A stretch of DNA of 64,000 nt. It comes from Nitrospirota bacterium. Its GTDB lineage: Bacteria > Nitrospirota > UBA9217. The notes beneath the pieces were generated by a model. That model made no database searches and was not told where the DNA came from. It saw nothing but the letters and a program-made list of their open reading frames with translations. The stretch spans positions 160,001-224,000 of the forward strand of contig CAVVOB010000018.1 of the NCBI GenBank assembly GCA_963749655.1, read 5' to 3'. The position numbers and the translations under genes were made by a program. This document shows, in pieces, positions 20,590 to 42,206 of this stretch. The number at the start of each line of letters is the position of its first letter. Position 1 is the stretch's first letter.

Positions 20590-21964
20590 CATTGCTGTCC
20601 AAGATAATCTGATTTCCTGAAGCTCACCCCTACCAATCAAGGCTTTTAGACAGGTAATTCCATCATCTCGGATTCAGGTTCTTTGTTCTGCTGTCCAATT
20701 ACCGATAGCTCATTACCAGTTGTTCTGCCGACGGTACAATCGGCGGTGTTTCAAACGGATTATCCAGCCATGTCCATAAATCTCGATACGTGAACAGGTT
20801 ATACCGGAGCATGGCAACCAAATTCGACAACGACCAGCCGAGTGTGGAACGGAACTTCAAGTACTTCAACACCAGGATTGCGATTAATGCTGTCCAAATC
20901 TGGGTCAGCAAAGCATTCCGGCTCGTTCCCACAAACGTCTTGATCTTCAGATTCTGCTTGATCGTCTTGAAAAATATCTCAATCTGCCAACGGTCTTTAT
21001 ATATGCTCGCGATGGTCGTAGCGCCAAAAGTGAGATGATTTGTCCACAGAACAATCACCCGCTCATTGTCTGCGTCCCATACTTCTACCCGCCGCAGGAT
21101 ATATGGGCATTTCCTGATTGAGTAATGGCCTGTCAGCTCAATGAGCTGGTCTTTAATGATGTTTCTGTTGTCGGGTACCGCTCTCTTTTCGATCACCTTG
21201 AAAGCGGCGTTATCCTTCTCTCTCGTTACAAAAAAAATTCCGGCCTCGGTCCATCGGGCAAACTGCTCATAGTCCACATAACCCCGATCAATTGCCAGGA
21301 TGGAGCCTTTGGGGAACGTGAGCGTATGCGCGATGTTCACTTCATGCACATTCCCCTCGGTCATACTGCAGAAGACCGGAAGATAGCCGTCGTGGTCCAA
21401 CAGCAGGTGAAGCTTGATAGCTCCTTTTTTCTGCCGATACTTTGCCCAGTCAAACAAAGTGATGCAAAGTTCTATCAGCGTGGCATCGAGGCTGAACAGC
21501 TTGTTCTTGAACCGAAACGGCTTCTTGCCGTGTGCCAGAACCCGGCACTTGGCCAGGAGCTGATAAAAGACCTTCTGGTACAGCTGCCACGGCCGATGCT
21601 CGTTGGCATAGGCCAGTGTGGAACGTTTGGGCGCTACATCTATCCCGAGGTGCTTAAGCTTGCCTAGGCATGTCGCCAATCCGCCGCAAATCTCCCGCAG
21701 CGAGTGTGCTTGTCCCAACTGACAGAACACCATTGCAACGAACTGACCCCAGCAACTGAACCCTTTTACGCCTCTTTCTGCCCGTGTTTCCCGCACCGCT
21801 CTCACAAAATCCTGCTGCGAAAATATATCTAGAATCTGTCCGAAAATGCTGTTAAACTTGTTCACGGGGATGTCCTCCTTCGGATATTTTGGTCTTCGAC
21901 AAACCTACTTTATCCGATTGAGGCTTCCCCTGCAATTACTCAAATCCTATCTTGGACGGGTCTG
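20590..21964 (-). mobile_element. Complete IS4-family insertion sequence (1375 bp) with 9-bp target site duplication
   Basis: Imperfect terminal IRs CATTGCTGTCCAAGATA / CAGACCCGTCCAAGATA; direct repeat ACTGCTCCT at 20581-20589 and 21965-21973. Confidence 0.93.
20699..21865 (-). CDS. IS4 family DDE transposase
   Basis: SLREI, RSTLAYAN, LDAT, DRGYVDY, YKDRWQIEIFFK.IKQNL (YREK signature). Confidence 0.95.
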   Translation of the reverse strand: MNKFNSIFGQILDIFSQQDFVRAVRETRAERGVKGFSCWGQFVAMVFCQLGQAHSLREICGGLATCLGKLKHLGIDVAPKRSTLAYANEHRPWQLYQKVFYQLLAKCRVLAHGKKPFRFKNKLFSLDATLIELCITLFDWAKYRQKKGAIKLHLLLDHDGYLPVFCSMTEGNVHEVNIAHTLTFPKGSILAIDRGYVDYEQFARWTEAGIFFVTREKDNAAFKVIEKRAVPDNRNIIKDQLIELTGHYSIRKCPYILRRVEVWDADNERVIVLWTNHLTFGATTIASIYKDRWQIEIFFKTIKQNLKIKTFVGTSRNALLTQIWTALIAILVLKYLKFRSTLGWSLSNLVAMLRYNLFTYRDLWTWLDNPFETPPIVPSAEQLVMSYR

Positions 21965-21971
21965 ACTGCTC

Positions 21972-23321
21972 CTAAAACCACGATCTGGTCCCGGGGTGGC
22001 AGTTTGCGTTGCAAGTCGCACCATTGTAATTCACGTCCGTGAGTATCGTTGCAGACGCGGGCCCTTCCATCGTTGTCGTATTCAAGGTCGAAAAATGATT
22101 GCCTGCGAGCTTGAACGGATCGTGACACTTGAGGCAGCTGAAGTGCTCGGTATTCACGTGGAAATCATGCTGACCGGACACGTAGCTGTTGTACTCAGTA
22201 GTGCCAAAGGCGTGACAGGATGCGCACTGGTCGGTGAACAGGTCGATCGTTGCACCCGAGAGCCAGGCAGGAGTAGTCTGTCCGCCGTGACAGCTTACCG
22301 ATGAACAGGTTCCGTCGGCGTTCGCAACCGCTGTTCCGCTCTTCGCGCTGTAGACGCTCAAGAACTGCAGTTCGACCGTATTGTCAAAGTGCTTGATGGT
22401 GGTCGATCCCGCGCCATTGTGGCAGGTATTGCATACCGATTTGACATTCGGCAAGGCATTGTGCGCTGCATGAGCCCCGCTCCTGTCAGGAGCGGCGGTG
22501 CCGGAAGGAGGATTACCATGGCAGGACGTGCACCCCGTGAATGTGAGGGGGGAGCCTTTGAGATGACAGCTGGTGCATGCAGGACCGCTCCCTGACACTC
22601 CGGCGAGCGTTGTCCCGTGGCATGCCGCATTCGCACAGGACGTTGCCCCGTTGGCATTGACATACGCCGCGTGGTTTATCTGCGGATACTGGCCCCAGTC
22701 CAGAGGATGCACGGAGCTGGCTCCGTCCAGATGACAGCTTGAGCATGCCGGACCGCTGCCGCTGACGCCGCCGAGCGCCGCTCCATGGCATGCTGCAGTA
22801 GCGCAGCCCGCTGTGCCGTTTGTGTTGACGTAGGCGCCGTGCAAAAGATCGATGTTCTGGCCCCACTCGACCGGGTGGAACGAGTTCACGCCTCCCAGGT
22901 GGCAGCTCGTGCACGACGGTCCGCTGTTCGTGACCCCGTCGAGCGCCGTTCCATGACAAGCGGCGTTTGCGCAGGATGTAGTGCCGAGAGCATCGGCATA
23001 GTTTCCGTGCTTGGACAATATGTCCTGACCCCAGTCGGTCGGATGGATCACCGTGGGTCCGCCGAGATGGCAACCCGTGCACGATATGCCGGAAACTCCG
23101 CCGAGGTAATCGATTCCGTGGCATTCCTTGCAGACCGAAGTGCCTTCCTGCGCCGCGGTCATGTGGCCCGCCGGGAGCCAGTTCGCCTGATGGCCGGTGT
23201 CCGCATCGAACGGCGCTTTCGAATTCTTACTCGAGCTACCGCACGCGGTAATGAACATCAACCCCGCGATGAGGAACATACTGATGATCGTCGGTTTGGT
23301 TACCTGTGGCATGCCTTGCAC
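21972..23321 (-). CDS. Multiheme c-type cytochrome lipoprotein (9 CxxCH + 4 CxxxxCH + 1 CxxxCH)
   Basis: Lipobox ITAC; heme motifs counted by hand; Geobacter-type CxxxxCH/CxxCH pairing; start may be 23312. Confidence 0.9.
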   Translation of the reverse strand: MQGMPQVTKPTIISMFLIAGLMFITACGSSSKNSKAPFDADTGHQANWLPAGHMTAAQEGTSVCKECHGIDYLGGVSGISCTGCHLGGPTVIHPTDWGQDILSKHGNYADALGTTSCANAACHGTALDGVTNSGPSCTSCHLGGVNSFHPVEWGQNIDLLHGAYVNTNGTAGCATAACHGAALGGVSGSGPACSSCHLDGASSVHPLDWGQYPQINHAAYVNANGATSCANAACHGTTLAGVSGSGPACTSCHLKGSPLTFTGCTSCHGNPPSGTAAPDRSGAHAAHNALPNVKSVCNTCHNGAGSTTIKHFDNTVELQFLSVYSAKSGTAVANADGTCSSVSCHGGQTTPAWLSGATIDLFTDQCASCHAFGTTEYNSYVSGQHDFHVNTEHFSCLKCHDPFKLAGNHFSTLNTTTMEGPASATILTDVNYNGATCNANCHPGTRSWF

Positions 23322-23746
23322 CTCTCATTGTTCTGACGGCCATGGCACGGGAAGCACGAAGCCGGGTTGATCCTGCCGTCGATCTTGTGCTGGTTCAGGT
23401 AGTCTCCCCGATGGGGCATCGCAATAGCGGGGGAATCCTTGTATTTATCGCTCGGTTTCAATTCTTCCTTGTGAGCATGGCAATCCGAACAGAATGCATC
23501 GCTATGGCATACGCCGCAGGTCTGCCTGTTCTGCGATGCGTAGTACTTGTGCCGCGAGCTGTAAAAATCGGGGGTGTGGTTCAGTACGCCCCGATCATCG
23601 GTATGACAGTCGCTGCAGATGGGCGGCGTCGGCACCTCGGTCGGATGCTTTGCGACCATGCTGGTCGTCTGCGCGCAGGCAAACAGCACGGCAGCGGCCG
23701 CCGGCAGGAGCAGCAAAAAAGCCATTTTTATCATTCTCTTGTTCAT
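23300..23746 (-). CDS. Pentaheme c-type cytochrome lipoprotein
   Basis: Lipobox LFAC; CSDCH, CGVCH, CSDCH, CFPCH, CKACH. Confidence 0.9.
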   Translation of the reverse strand: MNKRMIKMAFLLLLPAAAAVLFACAQTTSMVAKHPTEVPTPPICSDCHTDDRGVLNHTPDFYSSRHKYYASQNRQTCGVCHSDAFCSDCHAHKEELKPSDKYKDSPAIAMPHRGDYLNQHKIDGRINPASCFPCHGRQNNERCKACHR

Positions 23747-23747
23747 G

Positions 23748-25085
23748 CTATACGCCCTCCTTCCGTTTGCCGGTGATTTCAAAACTGTAGATCAGTTTCA
23801 GGAATGTCCGGATGTCCTGGTCGAAATCGGGATTCTTCGAATACTCCACGTCGGCGCCCAGTTTCAGGTTCTCAGCAAGCTCATAGTCGGCGGCAAGGGT
23901 CACGGAATAAGCATCCTTGACATCATTGATCGCGGTGTCATAGGCGACATCCAGCACGTCCAGAGTCACGCCGGCATGTCCGAATTTCCGCGTGCAATAG
24001 ACGCGATATTCAGAGTATTTCAACCGGTCTTCCTTGCCGTCCATACGATGTATCGACACTCCGGATCCGCCGGCCTCCGAATAGGAAAAACGAACGTTGC
24101 CGCCGTAGTAGTTCGCGTCGCCCGCAACGCTGTATCGGAAGGCCTTGTAATTCACGGAAACGTTGAGCTTGTCGGTGATATCATAGGACACTTCTTCGCC
24201 CAGGATGTTGACCTTTTCCTTCTCATCGATGACGGTGGGATCAAATTTGAAGACCGAGGTCAACGAACCCGTGAAGTAATCCTTGTAATTGATCATCGAC
24301 GCTTCCGTATTCAATCGTACCTTCGCAAAAGGTCCGAGGACGAGAAAATAGGTATGGTTCGCCCAATCGTTCGTGATGGAATTGTACTTGGAGTTGCCCA
24401 TGAGTTCCACCTTATTGATCGGCCGGACCCAGAGATCCACGCCTTCTTCCTTGCGGAAGTCCGCGCTGTCCTTCTCTTCCTTGAGGGCCGAGATGCCGAT
24501 GCGGTACAGCCCCGGCATCTGATGGGACAACCTGCCGCCGTAGATGGTATCGCTCACGTCCCCCGAAAAGTTTGCGACATCGGAATCAACGGAGCGGCCG
24601 GCAAAAGCGGACACGCCGAAATTGCCCGCAAGGTCGGTCCTGCCATAGATGCCGTCAACCCTCTCCGCGGCAACGCCTTCAGACACCAGAACGCGCCCCA
24701 GGTTGACAACGGCATTGCCCTTTGAGCTGCGGTAACTCAGGTAGCCGTAGGACAGATCATTGTCCTCCCGAGTTCCCAGCCTGCTGTGGGGCGCATCGGG
24801 TTCCATTGATCCCAGATTGTACCGGAGCCAGCCGCCCATGTGAAACGTAAAGCTTTCCTTTTCCGGATTCAGAACGGAAAAATTGAGATATTCATAGGCG
24901 CCGAGAATATTTCTCTTTTCTGTGTCCTCACGGGACTGCAAATAGGTCGTAGAACTGCCGACAACACTCACCTCCGCCGATGCAGCCGGCGAGAATATCG
25001 GCGCCGCGGACAGAAACAGGACCGCTGCTCCAAACATTCGCATGACCCGTGGACAGCTTAACATCCTTGACAACATCTTCTTCAT
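23748..25085 (-). CDS. Outer-membrane beta-barrel protein of a porin-cytochrome conduit
   Basis: Signal peptide, amphipathic Tyr/Gly-rich strands, C-terminal LKLIYSF; stop 1 bp from the cytochrome start. Confidence 0.75.
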   Translation of the reverse strand: MKKMLSRMLSCPRVMRMFGAAVLFLSAAPIFSPAASAEVSVVGSSTTYLQSREDTEKRNILGAYEYLNFSVLNPEKESFTFHMGGWLRYNLGSMEPDAPHSRLGTREDNDLSYGYLSYRSSKGNAVVNLGRVLVSEGVAAERVDGIYGRTDLAGNFGVSAFAGRSVDSDVANFSGDVSDTIYGGRLSHQMPGLYRIGISALKEEKDSADFRKEEGVDLWVRPINKVELMGNSKYNSITNDWANHTYFLVLGPFAKVRLNTEASMINYKDYFTGSLTSVFKFDPTVIDEKEKVNILGEEVSYDITDKLNVSVNYKAFRYSVAGDANYYGGNVRFSYSEAGGSGVSIHRMDGKEDRLKYSEYRVYCTRKFGHAGVTLDVLDVAYDTAINDVKDAYSVTLAADYELAENLKLGADVEYSKNPDFDQDIRTFLKLIYSFEITGKRKEGV

Positions 25086-25294
25086 CCTCAAGATGCTTCC
25101 TCCTTTCCGAAATATGAATCAGTTATCGAGAAAAACCTTATTGAGCGCTGATAAACAGGTGCCGGTATAACCGCCTGCGAATGCACGGGAGAGGTTTCTC
25201 CGGAAATAAGCAGTAATGCAAAAAACCTCATGGTAATTGCAGGCAGACTGACCCACGGAACCATTGTGCACTTTTTGCTATAAAAATCGATCAT

Positions 25295-25400: not shown

Positions 25401-25904
25401 GTGCGCCGAAATTCGAATTCTCCATATGCCTGTTCCGTGGTGGTCCTGCTTCTTGGTGCCGTCACGGCATTGTTTGCCCTTCTGCAGGTCCATGACGCTT
25501 TTGCCCAGCCGGGACCGGTTGCTGATTCAGGAAGCCTTTCAGCCTACCGCCTCATCGGCACTATCGGCGGCAACGCGCTTGCCGGGGCCGTACTGAGCGA
25601 CGGGAAAGGCGAGCAGACCTTCATCCGGCTCAACGACAGACTGCCCGACGGATCGCAGCTCGTAGGCGTTCATTTAGACAGGATTTCAATAAAAGGGACT
25701 GACGGCACGCGCTACGACATGTACATCTCCCACGAGACAAAACCCTCTTCCCCTACTCCTATCAAGCCTGTTGCCGAGGCCAGGCCTGCGCCGCCTGTTG
25801 ATCCTTACACGGGAAACGTTGCACCCACTGCACCGGCCGGGCATCCCGTCACAATGCCGGGCAAACGGGGCCGCGTGGGCCGCACAGGATCAAACGCCGA
25901 ATAA
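25401..25904 (+). CDS. Type II secretion GspC/PilP-like HR-domain protein
   Basis: N-terminal TM; YRLIGTI...GAVL...G.QTF.RLNDRLPDGS.LV.V..DRI; Pro-rich tail. Confidence 0.6.
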   Translation: MRRNSNSPYACSVVVLLLGAVTALFALLQVHDAFAQPGPVADSGSLSAYRLIGTIGGNALAGAVLSDGKGEQTFIRLNDRLPDGSQLVGVHLDRISIKGTDGTRYDMYISHETKPSSPTPIKPVAEARPAPPVDPYTGNVAPTAPAGHPVTMPGKRGRVGRTGSNAE

Positions 25905-26217: not shown

Positions 26218-26571
26218 TCAATTCCCTAAAATCGCTTTCCAGCCTTCGCGTCCTGTTTTATCTTTTACTTTGTAAATTTTAAATGGAGTGATATTTTCCT
26301 TCGGCTCGGATATTTTGCCATCCGGCATCAGCATGGTAAGCGTCATTTTCACTCTGACTGGCCAGGACCCGTCTGCATTCCGTTTGCCCCGCTCCACGAT
26401 GACGAGGGGAGATGTGACCGTGAACCCCTTGCCCTTCAGTGCCCCGGAACCGTCTATCGCCTTAATCACTTCCTCGTCCTTCGGCTTTGAGAATCCTGAA
26501 CAGCCTACTGCATTCAATACAAAAACGCCCGCAAGTATTAATACAATAAATAGAATAGATCTGTTTCTCAT
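26218..26571 (-). CDS. Hypothetical lipoprotein (paralog of 40013-40399)
   Basis: Lipobox AVGC; shared PKDEE.IKA...SP..IVE...DG.WPV.VK. Confidence 0.7.
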   Translation of the reverse strand: MRNRSILFIVLILAGVFVLNAVGCSGFSKPKDEEVIKAIDGSGALKGKGFTVTSPLVIVERGKRNADGSWPVRVKMTLTMLMPDGKISEPKENITPFKIYKVKDKTGREGWKAILGN

Positions 26572-26681: not shown

Positions 26682-26711
26682 AAAAAAAGGCGGACCCCGC
26701 AGGGTCCGCCT
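26682..26711 (-). terminator. Intrinsic terminator of the decaheme cytochrome gene
   Basis: GGCGGACCC-TGCG-GGGTCCGCC followed by T7 on the minus strand. Confidence 0.85.
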
Positions 26712-26771
26712 CAATGGTGTTCGTATGCGCTTTTGAATCCGCGCCTTGCTGGACTACGTTACCTGCTGATA

Positions 26772-29657
26772 CTACTTGGTAACGACGCTGCGTTTCTCGT
26801 AGAGCGAGCCGCCGTTCGCCTTCATGTGCGCCGTTGCTGCGGAGCTGTCATGGCAGGAGAAGCATGCGGCAGCGATCGGCGAGGACACGAGGTTGTCGCC
26901 GGAACCGCCACTGCCGTAGTTCACGTCCATCGTGATATACGGCGAGAAGTCGAATTTCGACGCGTCGGTCGACGACAGCGTACCCGTTGCGGTGGTGCTG
27001 AGAAGCATGTTGTTCATCACCGTATCGGTATATACCGTCGTATTGGTGTTGCCTACCCGTGTTACGCAGGAGAAATCAAATGCGCTGCCCGTGTAGCAGT
27101 CCTTGCCGTTGTTGAGGCCCGTGTTGGCGCCGACATGGCAGGCGTCGCACTTGTTCAGCTCGTTCGGATAGGTAATAAGGAAGAACCCTGCATCTGCCTC
27201 ATCGCCCGCGACCGAGGTAGCATCCCAGGTGAAATTCACCGTCCGCTTCGAGGCCCCATGGATGGCGTGAACAAAGGTGCTGGCGTTCACGGCCCAACCC
27301 TGGCTGGCTCTACCCGGATTGTGGCAGAACGAACAGGTCGGCGCGTCATTGCGCTGACCGACATGGAACGTGGGAGCTGCACCGAGCGCGACGTGGCAAG
27401 CATTACACTTGTCCGTATCCACTGCAGCGCGGCGGCCGGTGTATCCGGTTGCGACCTTCCACGCGTTCGGCGAAGGAACGGCGAGACCGCCCGTTCCGCT
27501 TGCAGCAGTATACAGATAGCCGGACACGTTCGTCTGAACAAGCGGCGGGGTGCCCGATCCGTAGCTGTAGCCGATGCCGCCGGTAAGCATTACCGCGGTG
27601 GAGGGCAGCGTCGTACCGGTCCGGACGATTGTGTAGTAACCGCTTCCGTCAGGTCCGATCATCGTGGCCGTGGTGCCGCTGATGACGCCGTTCCAGACGT
27701 TCCTGATGTAGACGCTGGCGCTCTTGTTGAAGTCAGACGGCGTGGTTCTGCCGTCCTGCGGCTCGGCCCATACGAAGTATGCGCTCGGCGAGCCCGCGAC
27801 GTTGGCAAACAGTTCTGAAGTCGTATCCGTCGGTGCCGTGAATACAACATCCGCGGCGGCCGTGTCATCATGGAACTTGAACGTGATGGCCGGATGGTTG
27901 TTCGACACGGTCACGCTGCTGATCAGCCATGAGAAACGATGTGCGCCGGTCGGCAATGCGTTTGCTGCGGCAATGTACTCAGCATTGGTATGGGTGTTGG
28001 TGCCGCCCAGGCCCATCCGAGGATCGGTCGTATCGGGCGGCACGATCGGAATGTGCTTGTCGGTAATGCCCGCCAGACCGCCGGATGCAGGATGGCAGCC
28101 CGAGCAGGTGGTATCATCGTCATTCGATCCGCCTGAGTGAGCGGTAAGGTTCCCTATTGACGTTGCGAAGCTTATATTGTCGTGGCAGGAACCGCAGGCC
28201 TTGCGGCTGGGTTTGGTCTTCCAGTTATTGCTGTCGGTCCCCTGGTGACACATGGTGCAGTTGCGGATGTCCTGGGGATAGGTGACGTCGTTCGCCAGCA
28301 CGCCAACCGGTCTTTCATTGGCCAGTTTCAGGTTTTCGCCCATGTGGATCTTATGGACCATGGTGTTCATTTCACCCTGCGAGAATCCGGTCGATGATGC
28401 TGTAGGATCGGTGGCAAGATTGATCTGGTCGCCAACGATATAGGTGGTGCTTGCGGGAAGTGCACCCGTCGCATCCACGGTCTGTACAGAACGACCGATC
28501 GCCCGCTGATAGGTATGGCATACCACGCAGTACTTCGTGTCAACACGGCCACCGTGCGGGGTGGTGGTGCCGATCTTGTAATGGCAATTATTGCAGGCTG
28601 CGGCCGTTACGATGTCATGCGATGCCGTACCGGTGAAGGCCGGCAGGTTTGCAGGCACGAAGTCCTGGATAACGTTGATTGCCCTGTCGTTCAGCGAGCC
28701 GCCAGCTACGGTACCGGAGACCTGGATCGTCAGACGGTGCGTGTTGTTGGCGTTATACGTAACCCCGGATACGGCCGTGATGTCCTTGGCAAACGTGTAG
28801 CTGTAGGTGCCGTCGCCGTTGTCCGTCATGTTGGCTGCCGTACCTTCGCTGGTGGGACGGGAGGTGGCGGTAACCATGTAGCTCTGCCAATAGGTGCCCG
28901 ATGCTGATGACTGCAACTGGGCCATCGCAAACTTGACCTGTGTTGCCGTCAGGCCGATAATCCCGTTGCCTGCTGAATCCTGCACCGTGAAATCAACAAC
29001 CGGCGTACCTGCAGAAACATCGATGACCTGGACCGAGCCCGTCATATTGAGCCCGGCAAGCTGCCTGGCACTCTGCTGGTTGATATCAACAAGGCCGCCT
29101 TGCACCGTGATGGGATCCGCGGTTGCGGAAAGCGGCGAGACGGTGTGCATGTCCTGGATAGCTGCCAGTCCGCCTGAAGCATGGCAGACGAGGCACTGCT
29201 CGACCGTGCTGGCCGTCGTGTCCGTGCCGTTGCAGACATAATCAGTGGACGTCACCGAATCAGGTGCGCCGTCGCCGTTCGTGTCCGGACCCACTTCGAT
29301 CTTGAAGCCGCCGTTCGCGCAGTTGGCGCCGGCAGGCTCAGTCGTGATCGATATGCCTACGGACGCGCCGCTTGATCCGGACGAACCGTTGCACACATAC
29401 TGCGTGCTCGTGATCTCGGTCGTATCGAGAACGCCATTGCTGTTCAGGTCGATGCCGGCATTTACAGTGATGCCGTAGCTGCCGTCAATCAAAGCCGAGC
29501 CGGTGCACTGGCCGGCCGGGACGGAATTCTCTTTCGACACAACTACTGAGTTCGTCCCCTGTGCCGTCGTACCGCCGCCGCCGCTGGAGCTGCAGCCCGC
29601 GGCGATCAGCACTGCGAACAGACCCACTGCAAGTACTACGTGCAATGCTTTTTTCAT
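26772..29657 (-). CDS. OmcA/MtrC-family decaheme lipoprotein with N-terminal disulfide repeats; hemes arranged 1+5+4
   Basis: Lipobox AAGC; 10 CxxCH; family motifs DNGDGTYSYTF, HGGRVDTKYCVVCH, VHKIHMG, YPQDIRNCTMCH, PSRKACGSCH, SPIAAACFSCHD. Confidence 0.92.
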   Translation of the reverse strand: MKKALHVVLAVGLFAVLIAAGCSSSGGGGTTAQGTNSVVVSKENSVPAGQCTGSALIDGSYGITVNAGIDLNSNGVLDTTEITSTQYVCNGSSGSSGASVGISITTEPAGANCANGGFKIEVGPDTNGDGAPDSVTSTDYVCNGTDTTASTVEQCLVCHASGGLAAIQDMHTVSPLSATADPITVQGGLVDINQQSARQLAGLNMTGSVQVIDVSAGTPVVDFTVQDSAGNGIIGLTATQVKFAMAQLQSSASGTYWQSYMVTATSRPTSEGTAANMTDNGDGTYSYTFAKDITAVSGVTYNANNTHRLTIQVSGTVAGGSLNDRAINVIQDFVPANLPAFTGTASHDIVTAAACNNCHYKIGTTTPHGGRVDTKYCVVCHTYQRAIGRSVQTVDATGALPASTTYIVGDQINLATDPTASSTGFSQGEMNTMVHKIHMGENLKLANERPVGVLANDVTYPQDIRNCTMCHQGTDSNNWKTKPSRKACGSCHDNISFATSIGNLTAHSGGSNDDDTTCSGCHPASGGLAGITDKHIPIVPPDTTDPRMGLGGTNTHTNAEYIAAANALPTGAHRFSWLISSVTVSNNHPAITFKFHDDTAAADVVFTAPTDTTSELFANVAGSPSAYFVWAEPQDGRTTPSDFNKSASVYIRNVWNGVISGTTATMIGPDGSGYYTIVRTGTTLPSTAVMLTGGIGYSYGSGTPPLVQTNVSGYLYTAASGTGGLAVPSPNAWKVATGYTGRRAAVDTDKCNACHVALGAAPTFHVGQRNDAPTCSFCHNPGRASQGWAVNASTFVHAIHGASKRTVNFTWDATSVAGDEADAGFFLITYPNELNKCDACHVGANTGLNNGKDCYTGSAFDFSCVTRVGNTNTTVYTDTVMNNMLLSTTATGTLSSTDASKFDFSPYITMDVNYGSGGSGDNLVSSPIAAACFSCHDSSAATAHMKANGGSLYEKRSVVTK

Positions 29658-30259: not shown

Positions 30260-30275
30260 TGCAACTCATATGCCA
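30260..30275 (-). promoter_or_regulatory. sigma54 (-24/-12) promoter upstream of the decaheme cytochrome
   Basis: TGGCATATGAGTTGCA = GG-N10-GC in an AT-rich region beside a sigma54 activator gene. Confidence 0.75.
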
Positions 30276-30608: not shown

Positions 30609-32002
30609 TTATTCCAATCCGAACTTTTTCACCTGATAGCGCATAGTATCGTAGCTTATCTGGAGCAGTTTGGCTGCCTGGGTCTTGTTATGATTGGAAC
30701 GTTCGAGGGCCTGCTGGATAAGGTCCTTCTCCAGCTTCTCAAGTGAGACCCCCTCATCAGGAAGAATGAACGTCCGGGTGTGCCGGTGGTACGCGACGCC
30801 TGCCCGTCCGATCAGCCACTCAGGAAGATGCTCGGGACCTATTTCCAGGTCGCTTTCAAGCACGACAATGCGTTCGACGAGGTTCCGGAGTTCCCTGATA
30901 TTGCCGGGCCAGTCGTAGGAAGCCAGAATGTCTTCGGCCTCGTTGGACAGATATTTTACGTTCTTCTTGCTGTGGTCCGGAACTGAAGAGAACAAAAAAT
31001 TTTCTCGCCAGGAGAGGGATGTCCTCTTTTCGCTCCCTGAGCGGCGGCACGTGCAGATGGAAGGTGTTCAGCCTGAAAAACAGGTCTCTCCGGAATTCTC
31101 CCGTCTCGACCGCCTCTGCCAGATTTTTATTCGTCGTTGCGATCACCGTTATGTCGATCGGTATCTCTTCCGTGCCTCCCACATGCCGGATGGTCCTTTC
31201 CTCAAGCACCCGCAGCAATTTTGCCTGCAGGTTCAGCTGCATGTCCCCGATCTCATCAAGGAGCAGCGCTCCTCCCTGCGCCAGCTCGAACAGCCCCTTC
31301 TTGGCCGACGTCGCATCGGTAAAGGCCCCTTTTTCATGGCCGAACAGCTCGCTCTCCAGCAAGGCGTCCGGGCAGCGAAGCGCAGTTGATCTGGATGAAG
31401 GGGGAGAATCCCGAACCGGACGCAGGGCACATCAGCCGGTGCGCATAACGGGCGAACAGCTCCTTGCCGGTCCCGCTCTCCCCCGTGAGAAGAAGGCTGG
31501 AAACAGAGGCGTGGGCGATCTTCTCGATCTGGACCATGAGGTCGCGGACAAGCTTCGAGGAGCCGATAATCTCCGGCTCCTCCAGCAGCCCGGAGCTGAC
31601 TTTTCGAAGATAGGTGACCTCCTGCTTCAACTGTTCCTTTTCCAGGATATTGCGGAGGACGATCTTTACTTCCTCGATATTGAATGGTTTGGTGAGATAA
31701 TCGGCGGCCCCGAGCTTCATCGCCTTCACCGCTGTTTCGGCGGAGTCGTCGGCGGTCAGCATAACGACCTGCGTGGAAGTCCCCTGCGCCATCAGGTCCT
31801 GTAAAATGTCGATACCGCTTTTCTCAGGGAGCCTGTTGTCCAGCAGCACGACATGGGGGGACCATGAGCTGATCTTGTTCAGGATGCCTGTTGAACTCGT
31901 CGCCGAGCGCACCTCGTACCCGCTGTTCTTCAGCACCCGCGAGAGCATGGATACGATAAGCTCATCGTCGTCGACGAGAAATATTCGACCGCCGCTCTTC
32001 AT
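30609..32002 (-). CDS. sigma54-dependent response regulator (REC-AAA+-Fis HTH), split by two frameshifts
   Basis: VDDD receiver, [44 protein letters not shown]. Confidence 0.9.
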
Positions 32003-33843
32003 GCTGTCAACGCCCCCTCCAGCTTCTTAACCGGCAGGCTGACGCTGCAGGTGACTCCGCCGTTCCCGTTGTTTTCGAGCCTGATCCGGCCGCCGTGCTC
32101 CTCAACGAGGCGCCTGGTGATCGAAAGCCCGAGTCCGGTCCCCTTCGACTTCGTGGTGAAGAAAGGATTAAAAATCTTGCCCAAGGTTGCGGGGTCGATC
32201 CCCGATCCCGTATCGGACAGCTCGATCTTCAGGTACTTTGCTTCGGCAAAGTACCTGCGTCCTTATCGTCACGGTCCCCCCGTCGGGCATGGCGTCGACG
32301 GCATTCATCATCAGGTTCAGGAAAATCTGCTGCAGCTGCATCGGGTCGGCCATGATCTCCGGCAAGATCGTCCGCCAGATCGCGTTTCAGGCGGACTGCG
32401 TGTGCCCCGTCCCGGGAACGGGCATGTTCCTTCAGCACCAGGGTAGTGACGTTCTCGAGTATGACATGCACATTCGTGCTGGCAAGCTGCGGCTTCGGCG
32501 GATGGGCGAAATTCAACAGCCCTTTCATCAGGTACTCGATCCGTTTGATCTCTCCGATGACCCTCTTCAGCACATCGCGGTCCTCGTCCGACAGGTAAGA
32601 CTCCTCGGAGAGGGCTTCCATGGACACCTTGATGCCCGCGAGCGGGTTCTTGATTTCATGGGCGAGACCGGTCGCGAGTTCTCCCGCCACTCTGATCCGC
32701 TCCGTTCGCTGCAGTTCTCTTTCGGCCCGCTTCCGCTCGGTTATGTCCCGGTCCATGGCGAGGATGAAGGTCTGGCCGCCCACCTCGAACGGGCCCGCGC
32801 TGACCTCCACGGGGAAGACCGATCCGTCCTTTCTTCGATGCTCCATTTCGGCCTTGATCCACTCTCCCTTGAGGATCCGTTCGATCCGGGAACCTGCATA
32901 GGCGGCATAGTCCGGCGTATCGAGGTCCTGGATCTTCATGCCTCTGAGCTCATCAACGGTGAAGTTGTGCATTCTCGCAGCCGCATGGTTGGCCTGAACG
33001 ATCCTTCCCGCCTGGCTCGCCTTCAGCTTCCAGGATAAAAATGGCATCCGCGGCGTTTTCAAAGAGGAGGCGATAGCGTTTTTCGCTCTCTTCGATGGCG
33101 CGCATATTCGTGCGAAGGGACTCCGCCATATCGTTGAATGCCACGGCCAGTTCCCCGAACTCGTCCTTCAAGCCTTTAATACGGTGGTCCAGATCGCCCC
33201 CCTTCAGTTTTCTCGTGGCCTGCAGGAGGACCAGGACCGGTCCGGTGACCCCCTTGATCACGGACATGGCGAAAATGATCATCAGCAGGGGGCCGGCGGC
33301 AATGACGATGAGCATGACGATCTTCATTTTGTGCGCGTAGCGAAGGGAATCTTCGGTCTGGTAATACAGCTTTTTATTCGTCAGAATGACCATGGTTTCC
33401 ACTTTTCCAATGAGCGAGTCGCCGATGATATGGGCGTTCTCCATCTGTTCCCTGCTGACCGAACGCCTTTCCCTTACCCTGGACAGGATCTCGGTAATGG
33501 AATCGTCGTATTGTCTGATCTGCTGATTGAGATCCTCCAGCCGTTCCTGCACGTAGGCGGAATGATGACAACCAAGGCAATTGCTGATGGAATTGTCTAC
33601 TGAACGAAGATGCTCCATGACCGAATCAGAACTCTGAGGACGAAGAGTGCCCTGTGAATACAGGTCCGTCTCCACTTTCTGTATGTTCATCAGCAGATGC
33701 TCCCGCAGGTTTTCGATCTGATGCAGCATGATGATATTGTCGAATTCGGACACATTGCGTTCGATGGCGATTACGAGATAAATGCCGCCGGCCAGCGTCA
33801 CGAGCGAAAAAATGCTGAGGAGCAGTATGATCTTCTTTTTCAT
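31999..33843 (-). CDS. Sensor histidine kinase (periplasmic CxxCH sensor, HAMP, PAS, HisKA, HATPase), split by frameshifts
   Basis: Two TM helices, CLGCH, DEFGELAVAFNDM HAMP, PAS, LAHEIKNPL, NAVDAM, FFTTK.KGTGLGL. Confidence 0.88.
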
Positions 33844-34221
33844 GTGTGAAGTTCCCGCGAAGCCTCTTCGGATCCGTTCACCTGTTCTTAAAAAACAGCC
33901 CGTGCAACGTTGGTTAGGGAGGGCTGGGAAAACTGTCGGGAATGTCGTTCAGGAAAGCATTCTGGATGAGTCTCTTTGATGCAACATCCCATGACGCTGC
34001 GATTCAGGCAATGCCGGGCCGGTAGCCCGTGAAACCGATCAAATCGCACCATCCATAATAAATCAGAACATGCATTGAGTCAATGCCGCGCTTGCAGAAA
34101 GGGACCAAGGGGAATCCGTACGTCTTCCCTCAGGGGCGACGCGCAGCTGCTGATACCGACGTACCATTGAACTGTAGATCGACGCTCACACCGCAAATTC
34201 CGCGAACGGGTCCGGACGGAC

Positions 34222-39777: not shown

Positions 39778-39860
39778 TGGTGCGAGAGGGGGGACTTGAA
39801 CCCCCACGGTCACCCACCAGATCCTAAGTCTGGCGCGTCTGCCAGTTCCGCCACTCTCGC
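39778..39860 (-). tRNA. tRNA-Leu(TAG)
   Basis: GCGAGAGTGGCGGAACTGGCAGACGCGCCAGAC-TTAGGA-TCTGG...GTTCAAGTCC...CCA. Confidence 0.95.
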
Positions 39861-40012
39861 CAGAGATATAACTGGAGATATAATAAGGAAGGCAGTGAAG
39901 GACGGCCTCTCCTCGCCCTTGTTCAGGAAAATCAGCGAAAACATCAAACGACATTTCGGCTTGCGCCGCGAGAGGCCTTCTGCGGCCATGGTGATCGGAA
40001 CCGATAACAGAC

Positions 40013-40399
40013 CTAGCCGGCTATTTCCGCCTTCCATACTTTTTTACCGGTGCCGTCTTCAACCTTGGACAGCTTAAAGATAAGCGTTTTTTCTTCCGTC
40101 ACTTCAACCGGCTTGGCGTTATTCGGATGAGATTTGAACGAAAGAGCCTTGTTCGACTTATAAGAAAGGGTGATCTTCACCTTGACAGGCCATTTCCCGT
40201 CGCTTCCCCGGCTCATTTTTTCCACGATGGTTACCGGAGACTGCAGTGTAATGAACCCTCCCATGAACAGGCTGCTGTTCTGAACGGCTTTGATTATTTC
40301 TTCGTCCTTAGGTGCAAAAAATTTGGAGCAACCGAACACGGTCAATGCACTCAACGTCACGATCATAATTACCGACAACTGTCTTGAACAGCGAAACAT
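40013..40399 (-). CDS. Hypothetical lipoprotein (paralog of 26218-26571)
   Basis: Lipobox VFGC; motifs shared with the paralog. Confidence 0.7.
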   Translation of the reverse strand: MFRCSRQLSVIMIVTLSALTVFGCSKFFAPKDEEIIKAVQNSSLFMGGFITLQSPVTIVEKMSRGSDGKWPVKVKITLSYKSNKALSFKSHPNNAKPVEVTEEKTLIFKLSKVEDGTGKKVWKAEIAG

Positions 40400-40614
40400 A
40401 AGCTCCTCTCCTCAATAAATAGAATTTGAGCCGACAACGAGTTCCCTTATCATTTGGATCTATAACCGATCATTTCGGGGCACGCCGGTCCTTCTCTCTC
40501 GTCCGGCCCGTGCCGAAAGCAATGATAAATTTACCGGAAATAGCGCTGTTTGTCAAAAAAAAATTAAGGAATTCCGCCTTATGAACGGGCTTCCGGTTTG
40601 CGTCGTTCCTGATT

Positions 40615-40653
40615 AAAAAAACGAGCCCGGCAAGAGAAAACTATTGCCGGGCT
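40615..40653 (-). terminator. Intrinsic terminator after tRNA-Lys
   Basis: AGCCCGGCAA...TTGCCGGGCT hairpin with T run on the minus strand. Confidence 0.7.
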
Positions 40654-40665
40654 TCCCTGAATTTC

Positions 40666-40741
<76 letters not shown>

Positions 40742-41049
40742 ATAGCAAAAAATGATGAGAGTACCAGATGCAAAGCGGCTACATTATACTTATCTTGCCG
40801 TGCAGATGCAACAAGAAAATCAAATCAGGAAGGTTTTTTCGGCCTCTTTTTTAGTGGAGCCCCCTCGGCAGGTGCCGGAGGCTCCCTCGAACAACGCGAC
40901 CTCCCGGAACTGCGAACTCACGCATGCGTGACACGTTTGTGTCACGCGCGAGTGAGCGTTTTCCACCCCCGGCCGGAGCCGGGGGATGCCAAGGCGCGGG
41001 ATTGCGGATTACTCACCCGATTCGTATGATTTTCATTCCCCATTGACTA

Positions 41050-41227
41050 TGGTGCGCCCGGCAGGAGTCGAACCGTGCAGCCGTCGCCCGTGAAGGGCTC
41101 CCCAGAGGGGGCCCGCCCCCTCTGGCATCTCCCCCGAATCGCAGGGGAGCGTCTCCCCTGCACCCCTCAGGCCGCAGGAGAACATTTGCATCGGTCATTG
41201 CCGGATTTTTTGCAATCAGCAAGTTCT
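41050..41227 (-). repeat. tRNA-linked element A: structured core plus duplicated 3' half of tRNA-Arg(TCG)
   Basis: tggtgcgcccggcaggagtcgaacc at 41050 and 41228 (period 178); core homologous to element B. Confidence 0.85.
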
Positions 41228-41304
<77 letters not shown>

Positions 41305-41390
41305 CTAACAAATGCTGAATTCGGTCGGAATGAAGAATTCGAATTTACGATTGGCTTTTCATTCCGCATTCGACATTCTGAATTAAAAAA

Positions 41391-41467
41391 TGGTGCGCCC
41401 GGCGGGAGTCGGACCCACGACCTTTGGCTTCGGAGGCCAACGCTCTATCCAGCTGAGCTACGGGCGC
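41391..41467 (-). tRNA. tRNA-Arg(CCG)
   Basis: Anticodon arm TTGGC-CTCCGAA-GCCAA, CCA end; T-loop reads TCCGAC. Confidence 0.9.
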
Positions 41468-41558
41468 AAACAAATTGCGGATTGTCGACTGCGGATTGCC
41501 GATTTTCAGGCTGTGCCTTCAATCCGCAATCCGAAATTCGCAATCCGCAACTAAAAAT

Positions 41559-41635
41559 TGGGGTGAGCGACGGGGCTTGAACCCGCGGCCACAAGGGCCA
41601 CAACCTTGTGCTCTACCAGCTGAGCTACGCCCACC
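41559..41635 (-). tRNA. tRNA-His(GTG)
   Basis: Anticodon arm CAAGG-TTGTGGC-CCTTG, G-1 and CCCA end. Confidence 0.95.
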
Positions 41636-41753
41636 ATAAAAATATATTTACCCTAACCCTTAATTGAATGGTGCCTATTTTATAGTTTCGTATGCAGTTT
41701 GTCAACAAACAATCAGCAATCCAATCCGCAATTCACAATCCGAACTTGTAAAC

Positions 41754-41932
41754 TGGCGCGCCTGAAGGGATTCGAACCCCTGACCGTCGCCCGTAAAGGG
41801 CTCCCCAGAGGGGGTCTGCCCCCTCTGGTATCTCCCCCGAAGCTCAGGGGAATCTTTCCCCTGAAACCCCTGGGGTCAAGGGACTGCATTTTTCAATTCG
41901 CAATCAGCGATTCGCAATCCGAAATTACAAAC
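41754..41932 (-). repeat. tRNA-linked element B: structured core plus duplicated 3' half of tRNA-Arg(TCT)
   Basis: tggcgcgcctgaagggattcgaacccctgacc at 41754 and 41933 (period 179). Confidence 0.85.
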
Positions 41933-42009
41933 TGGCGCGCCTGAAGGGATTCGAACCCCTGACCCACAGCTTAGAAGGCTGTTGCTCTATCCACCTGAGC
42001 TACAGGCGC
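41933..42009 (-). tRNA. tRNA-Arg(TCT)
   Basis: Anticodon arm ACAGC-CTTCTAA-GCTGT, CCA end. Confidence 0.95.
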
Positions 42010-42129
42010 AAGATTCGTGAGTTTTAAGTTGTTAGTTTTGAGTTTTAAATTGTCGGTGCTGAGTCGATCAGAAAACCCATCCGACAGGAGCTCAAAACTA
42101 ATAACTACAAACTAAAAACCGTCGTAAAC

Positions 42130-42206
42130 TGGTCGGGGCGAGAGGATTTGAACCTCCGGCTTTCTGCTCCCAAAGCAGACGCGCTACCGGGCTGCGCCAC
42201 GCCCCG
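42130..42206 (-). tRNA. tRNA-Pro(TGG)
   Basis: CGGGGCGTGGCGCAGCCCGGTAGCGCGTCTGC-TTTGGGA-GCAGA...CCA. Confidence 0.95.

Follow-up and report, generated by a model that had tools for sequence, protein, structure and literature searches.

A Nitrospirota decaheme cytochrome of the OmcA/MtrC family carrying a heme-10-like module ahead of domain I

MtrC-type decaheme cytochromes are the reference system for electron transfer to minerals and electrodes and a favoured bioelectronic scaffold. In the Shewanella proteins MtrF, MtrC, OmcA and UndA (3pmq, 4lm8, 6r2q chain C, 4lmh) the chain runs domain I, hemes 1-5, domain III, hemes 6-10, and the Shewanella system includes MtrA and MtrB. The family's domain order and its flanking barrels are described in a review. 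Outside Gammaproteobacteria, MtrC-like cytochromes have been reported from Desulfobacterota/Desulfuromonadia, often away from mtrAB and near transposases (PMC12133095 and PMC11492766). In the superfamily of NrfA, ONR, MccA and c554, PMC9250108 describes evolution by "grafting and pruning" of heme modules and cites MtrC only in passing, without treating it.

Here, we analyse a decaheme gene in a 64,000-nt stretch of a Nitrospirota assembly (GCA_963749655.1, contig CAVVOB010000018.1), hereafter the window, to whose positions all coordinates refer. Its product belongs to the same family as the Shewanella proteins by TIGR03507, Pfam and PDB matches, and has in common with them a lipoprotein signal, two split barrels, ten orthologous CxxCH motifs and ten conserved extra His. 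It differs from them in its chain order (heme 10, domain I, hemes 1-5, domain III, hemes 6-9), in a stalk made of DUF7151 repeats and in its neighbours, a porin-like protein of about 447 aa and two other multihemes. The gene lies near an IS4 transposase, a likeness to the Desulfobacterota/Desulfuromonadia genes; its clade, unlike theirs, is Nitrospirota, as judged from the nearest loci. Like the NrfA/ONR/MccA/c554 proteins of PMC9250108, it is a multiheme cytochrome, a class that evolves by gain and loss of small heme-bearing modules on a conserved heme core; in contrast to them, no module has been added or shed here, but one has moved to the other chain end and the heme count is still ten.

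A further comparison is with circular permutants. As in these, the order of homologous segments is cyclically shifted, and homologues of either order exist; unlike in these, only a 28-residue terminal module moves, while the signal peptide and stalk remain N-terminal. Circular permutation in general is explained by a model of duplication followed by trimming. In the literature on MtrC/OmcA multiheme cytochromes we found no description of a permuted layout: the main text of PMC12133095 and PMC11492766 does not mention a permuted heme order, and Baker et al. 2022 (PMC8805035) contains neither "permut" nor N-terminal or CXXCH.

The decaheme gene and its 1+5+4 layout

The gene lies on the minus strand and comprises the following features:

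26772..29657, minus strand: whole gene, OmcA/MtrC-family decaheme lipoprotein, 961 aa, layout 1+5+4 (open reading frame and translation, TIGR03507, Pfam MtrC/MtrF domains)
29592..29657, minus strand: signal peptide and lipobox, aa 1-22, Cys22 (read from the translation; relatives have their lipobox Cys at the same alignment position)
29232..29528, minus strand: stalk of two DUF7151 repeats, the first at about aa 44-91 and the second at about aa 102-142 (Pfam PF23657, E 3.6e-22, two stretches)
about 29136..29219, minus strand: relocated heme-10-like module, aa 147-174, CxxCH 155-159, trailing His171 (heme-10 profile, canonical HMM)
28623..29135, minus strand: linker and split beta-barrel domain I, aa 175-345, approximate bounds (Pfam MtrC-MtrF_N at aa 216-316, OmcA-like_N, hhalign)
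28053..28622, minus strand: pentaheme domain II, hemes 1-5, aa 346-535, CxxCH at 355, 377, 467, 488 and 518 (motif positions, per-heme profiles)
27438..28052, minus strand: split beta-barrel domain III, aa 536-740, approximate bounds (TIGR03507 and canonical-HMM coverage, internal repeat with domain I)
26775..27437, minus strand: domain IV, hemes 6-9 only, aa 741-961, CxxCH at 751, 775, 837 and 932 (Pfam Mtrc-MtrF_II-IV, per-heme profiles)
26687..26712, minus strand: intrinsic terminator-like hairpin 60 nt 3' of the stop (11-pair stem with 8 G-C pairs, then a T run)

The reading frame is intact down to the stop codon at 26774-26772, and the protein scores 359.5 bits against TIGR03507 (cut-off 209.3, E 3.6e-107), aa 214-953 being matched to positions 3-641 of the 672 in the profile, so that the last 30 or so model positions find no partner at the C-terminus. 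Instead of the usual order of barrel I, pentaheme II, barrel III and pentaheme IV (5+5), a single motif (aa 155) precedes a group of five and a group of four. The hydrophobic N-terminus closes in A-G-C at Cys22, by eye a putative lipoprotein anchoring signal. In the stalk, each DUF7151 repeat has one Cys pair and a D.N.NG-type motif, and the two copies have a 26-nt DNA repeat in common; the best PF23657 stretch is aa 102-142, and the bounds of the first repeat were taken from the alignment of relatives. At the other end, Pfam Mtrc-MtrF_II-IV matches aa 743-955 with profile positions 1-148 of 176, and domain IV stops past the HM..NGG motif without a heme-10 module, 29 residues beyond the Cys of the last CxxCH. 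These data agree with an earlier note on this DNA, which had read the ten motifs as 1+5+4 rather than 5+5, had the chain stop after heme 9 with a terminator next, and had placed the module at about 29145-29205, before domain I and behind two Cys/DxNxxG repeats: the motif positions are the same, the hairpin follows the stop, the two repeats are those found by Pfam, and the coordinates above include the flanks of the module.

Could the stop after heme 9 be spurious or stem from a recent nonsense mutation, with an incidental motif at the N-terminus? Two neighbouring genes in the same window carry at least five frame changes, and the homologue of the decaheme gene in a second Nitrospirota locus (L040) is split by a frameshift. 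We rejected a truncated or mis-assembled gene, to which we give a negligible chance, on three grounds: i) the stop is found 28-31 residues past the heme-9 Cys in all 16 full-length 1+5+4 relatives, which are 40-67% identical and include independent assemblies, ii) the terminator follows it, and iii) no heme-10 remnant is left downstream, all frames from the stop codon to the following gene being free of CxxCH.

Homology of the N-terminal module to heme 10

From 174 canonical decahemes we built one profile for each of the ten hemes. The layout is not a product of chance: against these profiles, the N-terminal module of the window protein scored 39.5 bits with heme 10, 16.6 bits with heme 5 and at most 6.4 bits with the other eight. 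The motifs of the protein came out as a cyclic shift, motif 1 corresponding to heme 10 and motifs 2-10, in order, to hemes 1-9. All 16 proteins of 1+5+4 layout behaved in this way, with motif 1 best matched by heme 10 (mean 41.9 bits; heme 5 next, 18.2 bits) and motifs 2-10 by canonical hemes 1-9. A full-length HMM of canonical proteins (116 proteins, 873 positions) split the window protein (P0001) into two pieces, aa 190-959 aligning with positions 77-838 and aa 147-174 with positions 837-864, the latter with 19.2 bits (iE 1.5e-8, Z=1). The same two-piece split was seen in five of the six permuted proteins tested, P0002 being reported as a single piece; the canonical control gave one piece. 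When the profile of the 16 proteins was aligned with MtrF 3pmq, the best solved relative (E 5.2e-41), its C-terminal end fell on residues 577-613 and its N-terminal module on residues 608-640.

Conservation at single positions follows the same pattern. All 16 proteins have E153, C155, C158, H159, G162, I167 and H171 in the module, at the positions conserved in canonical proteins. They also agree in His944, which belongs to the HM..NGG motif following heme 9, and have exactly ten invariant non-motif His altogether, candidates for bis-His ligation that equal the hemes in number. By homology, then, the N-terminal module is shown to be the counterpart of heme 10 and the other nine motifs those of hemes 1-9 in order. 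The earlier note had arrived at this view from the usual family ending (heme-9 motif, HM..NGG, then E.C..CH...H), an ending that is indeed seen in the alignment of 121 relatives; the profiles, the HMM split and the MtrF alignment bear it out. It had also named two findings that would speak against it. Neither occurred: the N-terminal CxxCH did not prove unrelated to heme 10, and no close homologue keeps a C-terminal heme 10 that would make the window protein a truncated copy.

The heme-10 assignment is weaker among the more distant proteins that make up the other half of the family: with profiles of their own, 18 of the 25 N-terminal modules scored were best with heme 10, six with heme 5 (all from the 11-heme group) and one with heme 9. 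The six modules that do slightly better as heme 5 would suit a different architecture, a nine-heme core with a separate stalk heme, which might lie next to domain I and act as an added entry or exit point, and a domain IV with truly four hemes. The heme-5 and heme-10 modules are homologous and a heme-5-like copy could serve elsewhere; in addition, unrelated N-terminal heme domains do occur in the family (2+5+5, 6+5+5, 1+5+5). We nevertheless regard a stalk heme as unlikely, given that the module is heme-10-specific in every one of the 16 proteins of the window's half of the family at the mean scores given above, that it is confined to proteins lacking a C-terminal heme 10, none of those examined having heme-10-like modules at both ends, and that the HM..NGG segment, which lies upstream of heme 10 in canonical proteins, stays invariant. 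A recent copy of the protein's own heme-5 module was likewise ruled out by the two scores of the window protein and by the absence of a DNA repeat joining the two regions.

Proposed placement of the module on domain IV

Where would the relocated module sit in the folded protein? The two halves of MtrF are reportedly arranged about a pseudo-twofold axis. Within the window protein, hhalign aligned aa 146-512 with aa 510-961 (99.5% probability, E 2.6e-22), and the alignment is collinear through heme module, linker, barrel and hemes, so that aa 146 onward runs parallel to the stretch leading from the heme-5 module through its linker into domain III. The spacing from the module to heme 1 (179-240 aa) tracks that from heme 5 to heme 6 (180-253 aa) in 41 of the 42 listed N-module proteins, the exception being P0308, in which one motif is absent and the figure is inapplicable.

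We propose that members of the family consist of an internal tandem repeat, with one half on either side of the pseudo-twofold axis, the protein being readable as two copies of a unit made of heme module, linker, barrel and four hemes. The link from the heme-10 module to domain I would be the symmetry mate of the covalent link that joins the heme-5 module to domain III in every member. On this view the heme-10 module of about 28 residues has left the C-terminus and been inserted behind the lipid-anchored stalk, ahead of domain I; by folding back on the domain IV of its own chain, it would restore the usual ten-heme staggered cross. The collinear alignment of the halves points to such a circular-permutation-like relocation with the module folding back in cis, and we hold it quite probable that the window protein is a complete decaheme built in this way. 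Homology and symmetry reasoning would place the module on domain IV and close the structure within one chain, the first of two options put forward in the earlier note and one that fits both the internal-repeat alignment and the conserved ligand and packing residues. PMC12915252 describes an exposed C-terminus in Shewanella MtrC that accepts fusions, which we also count in favour of relocation.

The module may instead complete the domain IV of a neighbouring subunit, the second option of that note, and an unbroken heme path would then run through dimers, rings or head-to-tail chains. Such domain swapping classically arises when a terminal segment is moved, and the linker between module and domain I has only about 8-15 residues in several other lineages, among them clade B, P0148 and the Anaeromyxobacteraceae-type proteins. 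In most relatives, moreover, the module directly follows collagen-like Gly-X-Y repeats (Pfam Collagen is reached in 5 of 16), and repeats of this kind trimerise in other bacterial proteins. The window protein, however, lacks the collagen-like repeats, and the linker of its clade, some 30 residues long, is aligned with the one that joins heme 5 to domain III within the chain. The OmcA/MtrC family is known as one of monomeric lipoproteins, which also counts against swapping. Pfam and PDB searches gave no similarity to polymerising cytochromes: the listed PDB matches are MtrF, MtrC, OmcA and a weak c7-like chain, none of them a filament cytochrome of the OmcS, OmcE or OmcZ type. Nothing found requires a domain swap or speaks for a head-to-tail heme chain, and we think it very unlikely. 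In most relatives the stalk is collagen-like and probably trimeric, and heme-10 modules used in trans could complete the domain IV of neighbours or form a shared hub, giving a multi-subunit surface heme network; this appears to us highly improbable. If it were true, several decahemes would be coupled and the repeated relocation would reflect selection for such assemblies.

The relocation with fold-back in cis bears on how the family is understood. Natural proteins that have all ten sites and take the terminal heme from the other chain end suggest that the terminal heme module is portable, that the family repeat may equally be read as barrel plus five hemes or as heme plus barrel plus four hemes, and that the heme wire would not be fixed by chain topology. 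The 1+5+4 proteins would be ready-made templates for permuted or split designs. Family models leave the N-terminal module unaligned, and miscounts or apparent truncations may result.

Recurrence of the N-module arrangement and its gene neighbourhood

The initial family search gave the best 150 of about 4,280 members. Among 264 first relatives, 16 full-length proteins have the 1+5+4 layout (the window protein and 15 others), and four further fragments fit it as far as they are present, three by their C-terminal ending and one by its N-terminal module; among 311 full-length rows, 266 are canonical and 42 are N-module forms. A single origin for all N-module forms is rejected (AU p = 7e-45), and these comparisons of protein sequences show the arrangement to be conserved and recurrent in separate branches of the family. 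Canonical proteins with an "HRWW" tail nest inside the permuted grade of the window's clade, which would suit a reversal within that clade, but grouping all 13 permuted rows is not rejected (AU p 0.264). Nor is the joining of clade B and P0148 in one clade (p 0.306).

One lineage provides a natural control that supports relocation. In P0313 the order is heme 9, heme 10, Gly linker and an extra heme 11, and in its nine sisters (support 99) the module is at the N-terminus and the C-terminal order is heme 9, Gly linker, heme 11. Because the extra heme 11 is still C-terminal in the sisters, the module would have left an internal position in that lineage, which argues for relocation of the module and not for a strict permutation of the whole chain. 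No intermediate carrying both copies was found: an 11-motif protein with heme-10-like modules at both ends is absent from P0001-P0264 by module scoring, which skipped C-terminal modules with fewer than 20 residues past the Cys, and from P0265-P0384 by layout. Other N-terminal heme additions among the 264 relatives (seven proteins of 2+5+5, one of 6+5+5 and one of 1+5+5, P0200) were considered as intermediates and dropped, since their module is a different, diheme-type domain. Module similarity is uninformative as a guide to the origin of the module, the N-modules of clade B scoring 69.8 against the C-modules of their sisters and 70.9 against the N-modules of clade A.

Syntenic 1+5+4 genes occur in two Nitrospirota MAG loci, L001 and L040. 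The neighbours of the decaheme gene in the window are:

26218..26571, minus strand: small lipoprotein, 117 aa when read from the internal ATG; the next gene, conserved (homologues of 56% identity at this place in both L001 and L040)
23748..25091, minus strand: putative porin-like outer-membrane protein, 447 aa (syntenic in L001, 53%, and L040, 49%)
23300..23782, minus strand: pentaheme cytochrome, 160 aa, five CxxCH by motif count (syntenic in L001, 71%, and L040, 66%)
21972..23321, minus strand: lipoprotein-type multiheme cytochrome, 449 aa, nine CxxCH and five C....CH by motif count (TIGR01904, E 9e-7; syntenic in L001 and L040)

The small lipoprotein has no Pfam or NCBIfam match, and the open reading frame at 25401-25904 reaches no Pfam or NCBIfam family above cut-off. 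The porin-like protein has sub-threshold matches only (BBP2, E 0.0066; Porin_4, E 0.062), and neither it nor the two neighbouring cytochromes has a solved relative; the TIGR01904 match of the 449-aa cytochrome is to a CxxxxCH/CxxCH domain. None of the cluster neighbours matches the MtrA/DmsE or MtrB/PioB models that mark the periplasmic decaheme and the 26-strand porin of an MtrCAB-type conduit. From this context, the decaheme would stand outermost in an electron-transfer path formed with the products of the adjacent porin-cytochrome cluster, and gene order suggests where its electron donor may lie. The 1+5+4 genes also draw attention to this uncharacterised cluster, which is conserved in Nitrospirota.

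An N-terminal heme-10 module in an OmcA/MtrC-family cytochrome

The window cytochrome P0001 (26772..29657, minus strand) is encoded by an intact open reading frame of 961 residues. It starts with a hydrophobic signal that ends at a lipobox (Cys22), followed by two DUF7151 repeats (Pfam, E 3.6e-22). It scores 359.5 bits against the OmcA/MtrC decaheme model TIGR03507 (cut-off 209.3), it is matched by the Pfam MtrC/MtrF N-terminal and II/IV domains, and its best solved relative is MtrF (3pmq). P0001 is thus above the family-model cut-off and keeps all ten heme sites, but departs from the 5+5 sequence order that defines the family. Its ten CxxCH motifs begin at positions 155; 355, 377, 467, 488 and 518; and 751, 775, 837 and 932, a 1+5+4 layout, and the chain stops 29 residues past the first Cys of the last motif. 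A hairpin whose stem has 11 pairs, accompanied by a T run, lies 60 nt 3′ of the stop codon, and no further CxxCH is present in any frame between this stop and the next gene. Motif, hairpin and frame scans therefore agree with what the earlier note had described from the sequence, namely the 1+5+4 count, the C-terminal stop, the terminator and the lack of a Cys codon before it, and its coordinates for the N-terminal module are also correct.

Which heme does the N-terminal motif represent? A set of 174 canonical (5+5) relatives supplied ten ungapped 28-residue profiles, one per heme site, which were scored on every motif of 16 full-length 1+5+4 proteins. Motif 1 fitted heme 10 best in all 16 (mean 41.9 bits; runner-up heme 5, 18.2), with P0001 giving 39.5 bits for heme 10 versus 16.6 for heme 5, and motifs 2-10 corresponded to hemes 1-9 in order, that is, a cyclic shift. 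An HMM of full-length canonical sequences (116 proteins, 873 positions) aligned P0001 in two pieces, residues 190-959 with positions 77-838 and residues 147-174 with positions 837-864 (19.2 bits, iE 1.5e-8, Z=1). The same split was seen in five of the six permuted proteins tested, while the relative P0002, like a canonical control, aligned as a single piece. Against MtrF, the last 37 positions of a profile of the 16 proteins matched residues 577-613 and the N-terminal module matched residues 608-640 (14.5 bits, conditional E 4.3e-7). The homology of the module to heme 10, proposed in the earlier note, is borne out by these three approaches. No DNA repeat joining the heme-10 module to the heme-5 region of the same gene was found.

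The reading of P0001 as a merely truncated copy is ruled out, since layout and stop position are common to 16 full-length relatives. These proteins, 40-67% identical and found among the first 264 relatives collected, all stop 28-31 residues past the heme-9 Cys, and four fragments are consistent as far as they are present (three with the C-terminal ending, one with the N-terminal module). When one genome per species was scanned, the 93 multiheme ORFs listed included three without a motif after heme 9. Two are in Nitrospirota MAGs (loci L001 and L040), and the third is one gene of L035, in an Anaeromyxobacteraceae MAG. Both Nitrospirota loci show synteny with the window (cytochrome, small lipoprotein, porin-like protein of 430-447 aa, pentaheme cytochrome and lipoprotein cytochrome of 429-449 aa), and the housekeeping genes flanking the cluster are 81-94% identical; the source of the window is therefore very probably a related Nitrospirota genome.

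The orthologous permuted gene at L040:7848-10557 carries a frameshift between hemes 2 and 3 that yields two overlapping ORFs. At L035:3470-11881 there are three tandem family genes, the first permuted (734 aa) and the other two canonical; tandem paralogues are common elsewhere too, with two or three genes in 13 of 80 loci.

Probable folding of the permuted chain

Module residues E153, C155, C158, H159, G162, I167 and H171 are invariant in all 16 proteins and are those conserved in canonical heme-10 modules. The HM..NGG segment, which in canonical proteins comes just before heme 10, is kept, with His944 invariant, and the invariant His outside the motifs are exactly ten, equal to the heme number. 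P0001 also shows an internal repeat (residues 146-512 versus 510-961, 99.5% probability, E 2.6e-22), collinear through heme module, linker, barrel and hemes. Among the 42 N-module proteins listed, 41 have a module-to-heme-1 distance that follows the one from heme 5 to heme 6 (P0308 lacks one motif). The two halves of MtrF are reportedly related by a pseudo-twofold axis; if so, that axis would pair the covalent link between heme-5 module and domain III with a counterpart joining heme-10 module and domain I. In the permuted protein this second link would be covalent and the break would fall after heme 9; the heme-10 module would fold back on the chain's own domain IV, and the usual ten-heme cross would form. 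From the conserved residues, the HM..NGG segment, the ten His, the internal repeat and the symmetry argument, we infer this in-chain fold-back. The Shewanella MtrC C-terminus, described in part of one report as exposed and accepting fusions (PMC12915252), agrees with it, and passages of a review place the pentaheme domains of solved structures centrally, with barrels at the flanks. The head-to-tail heme chain that the earlier note had offered as an alternative is unlikely and unsupported.

In most permuted relatives (P0002-P0005, P0009-P0023 and L001:7797-10397) a collagen-like Gly-X-Y run directly follows the lipobox, and the heme-10 module starts a few residues after it. The Pfam Collagen model is reached by 5 of 16 permuted proteins, and P0001 has its DUF7151 repeats in place of the run. 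Trimerisation of these runs, if it occurs, would bring three heme-10 ends together.

Distribution and origins of the layout

A second search was seeded with the divergent L035 protein, and its best 120 matches comprised 17 proteins of 1+5+4 layout, nine 1+5+5, one 1+4+5, 82 5+5 and 11 other or partial. With per-heme profiles built from these 82 canonical members, motif 1 averaged 23.5 bits for heme 10 versus 18.0 for heme 5, so the cyclic shift is present on average, if less sharp. Heme 10 was best in 18 of the 25 modules scored, heme 5 in six, all from the eleven-motif group, and heme 9 in one.

Among 311 full-length rows, a sample skewed by the use of permuted proteins for both queries, 266 were canonical, 33 had the N-module only, nine had it with an unrelated extra C-terminal heme and three were fragments (one row was reassigned manually). 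On trees that left out the module's own columns, the layout requires at least eight changes (FastTree, 311 rows), or 5 and 6 changes on two IQ-TREE subsets. The AU test rejected a single clade of all 17 permuted rows of the first subset (delta lnL 443, p 7e-45); it did not reject grouping the 13 permuted rows of the clade around P0001 (p 0.26), nor grouping clade B, another group in the tree, with the relative P0148 (p 0.31). These tests and the change counts therefore firmly indicate at least two origins, and more than two are likely. An apparent reversal to the canonical order in the 'HRWW'-tail clade is unproven, and recombination exchanging N-terminal cassettes would also fit.

The proteins of this tail type (P0013, P0014, P0017-P0020, P0022, P0024, P0025 and the Geomonas-type P0036, P0043, P0044, P0048 and P0074) are canonical; their heme-10 module is unusually long and ends in HRWW. 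Two trees place them inside the permuted grade of the clade around P0001, a hint that the module may have returned to the C-terminus, although the AU test leaves the simpler topology standing.

The canonical protein P0313 has the C-terminal order heme 9, heme 10, Gly-rich linker and extra heme 11, whereas its nine sisters carry the module at the N-terminus and end with heme 9, Gly linker and heme 11. Judging from this motif order, the module moved away from an internal position in that lineage. The eleven-motif subgroup (P0278, P0280, P0283, P0286, P0288, P0290, P0294, P0307, P0308 and P0318, with P0313 as canonical sister) has its extra CxxCH at the extreme C-terminus, past the Gly-rich linker, and, P0313 excepted, a heme-10/heme-5-like N-terminal module. 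Unrelated heme domains are added at the N-terminus of other members (P0140, P0174, P0180, P0208, P0209, P0212, P0215, P0143 and P0200), giving 2+5+5, 6+5+5 and 1+5+5 layouts, and a domain of ~150 aa precedes their diheme-type module.

MtrC-like proteins are known outside Gammaproteobacteria, according to the main texts of two studies that hold nothing on a permuted heme order (PMC12133095, PMC11492766). The parts of Baker et al. 2022 covered here (PMC8805035) hold nothing on it either, and full-text literature searches that paired terms for permutation with either MtrC or OmcA returned nothing relevant. The closest published idea is that heme modules undergo 'grafting and pruning', described for the NrfA/MccA group (PMC9250108). 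At the sequence level, the permuted layout is real, conserved and recurrent. It does not demonstrate a new mechanism, and is of clear interest for the study or engineering of multiheme wires.

Gene neighbourhood of the window cytochrome

Four conserved genes lie downstream of the cytochrome on the same strand:

Small lipoprotein, minus strand, first of the four
Porin-like protein of 447 aa, minus strand, with sub-threshold porin matches only (BBP2, E 0.0066)
Pentaheme cytochrome, minus strand
21972-23321, minus strand, lipoprotein cytochrome with nine CxxCH and five C....CH motifs (TIGR01904, E 9e-7)

No neighbour in the cluster matched an MtrA- or MtrB-type model. By its gene order the cluster looks like a porin-cytochrome conduit, Geobacter-like rather than Shewanella-like, and on that same basis the permuted MtrC-type protein would be an outer, surface-exposed partner. 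The 21972-23321 cytochrome contains threefold internal repeats, each with one C....CH and one CxxCH, that resemble the Geobacter CxxxxCH/CxxCH domain (TIGR01904); no solved relative was found for it.

At the 3′ end of the cluster lies an IS4-type DDE transposase (20699-21865, minus strand; Pfam E 1e-25). A conserved ORF of 167 aa (25401-25904, plus strand), weakly similar to the type II secretion protein GspC (E 0.004), is located between the small lipoprotein and porin-like genes in the window and past the last cytochrome in L001 and L040, a difference suggestive of local rearrangement. Immediately upstream of the cytochrome (30615-33885, minus strand), a sensor kinase and a sigma-54-type response regulator are both broken relative to the intact 645-aa kinase and 461-aa regulator of L040. 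The kinase spans four frame segments and the regulator three, so that the 3.3-kb stretch next to the intact 2.9-kb cytochrome gene contains at least five frame changes; the two genes are decaying pseudogenes or else the product of local assembly errors. Neither gene is present at the matching position of L001. A sigma-54-promoter-like site (30261-30275, minus strand) with one mismatch to the consensus used lies ~600 nt 5′ of the cytochrome start, in the interval separating that gene from the broken sigma-54 activator; matches with at most two mismatches number 53 in the window versus 61 expected, not above chance. Seven tRNA genes (Leu, Lys, three Arg, His and Pro) occupy 39778-42206 on the minus strand, a stretch free of long ORFs.
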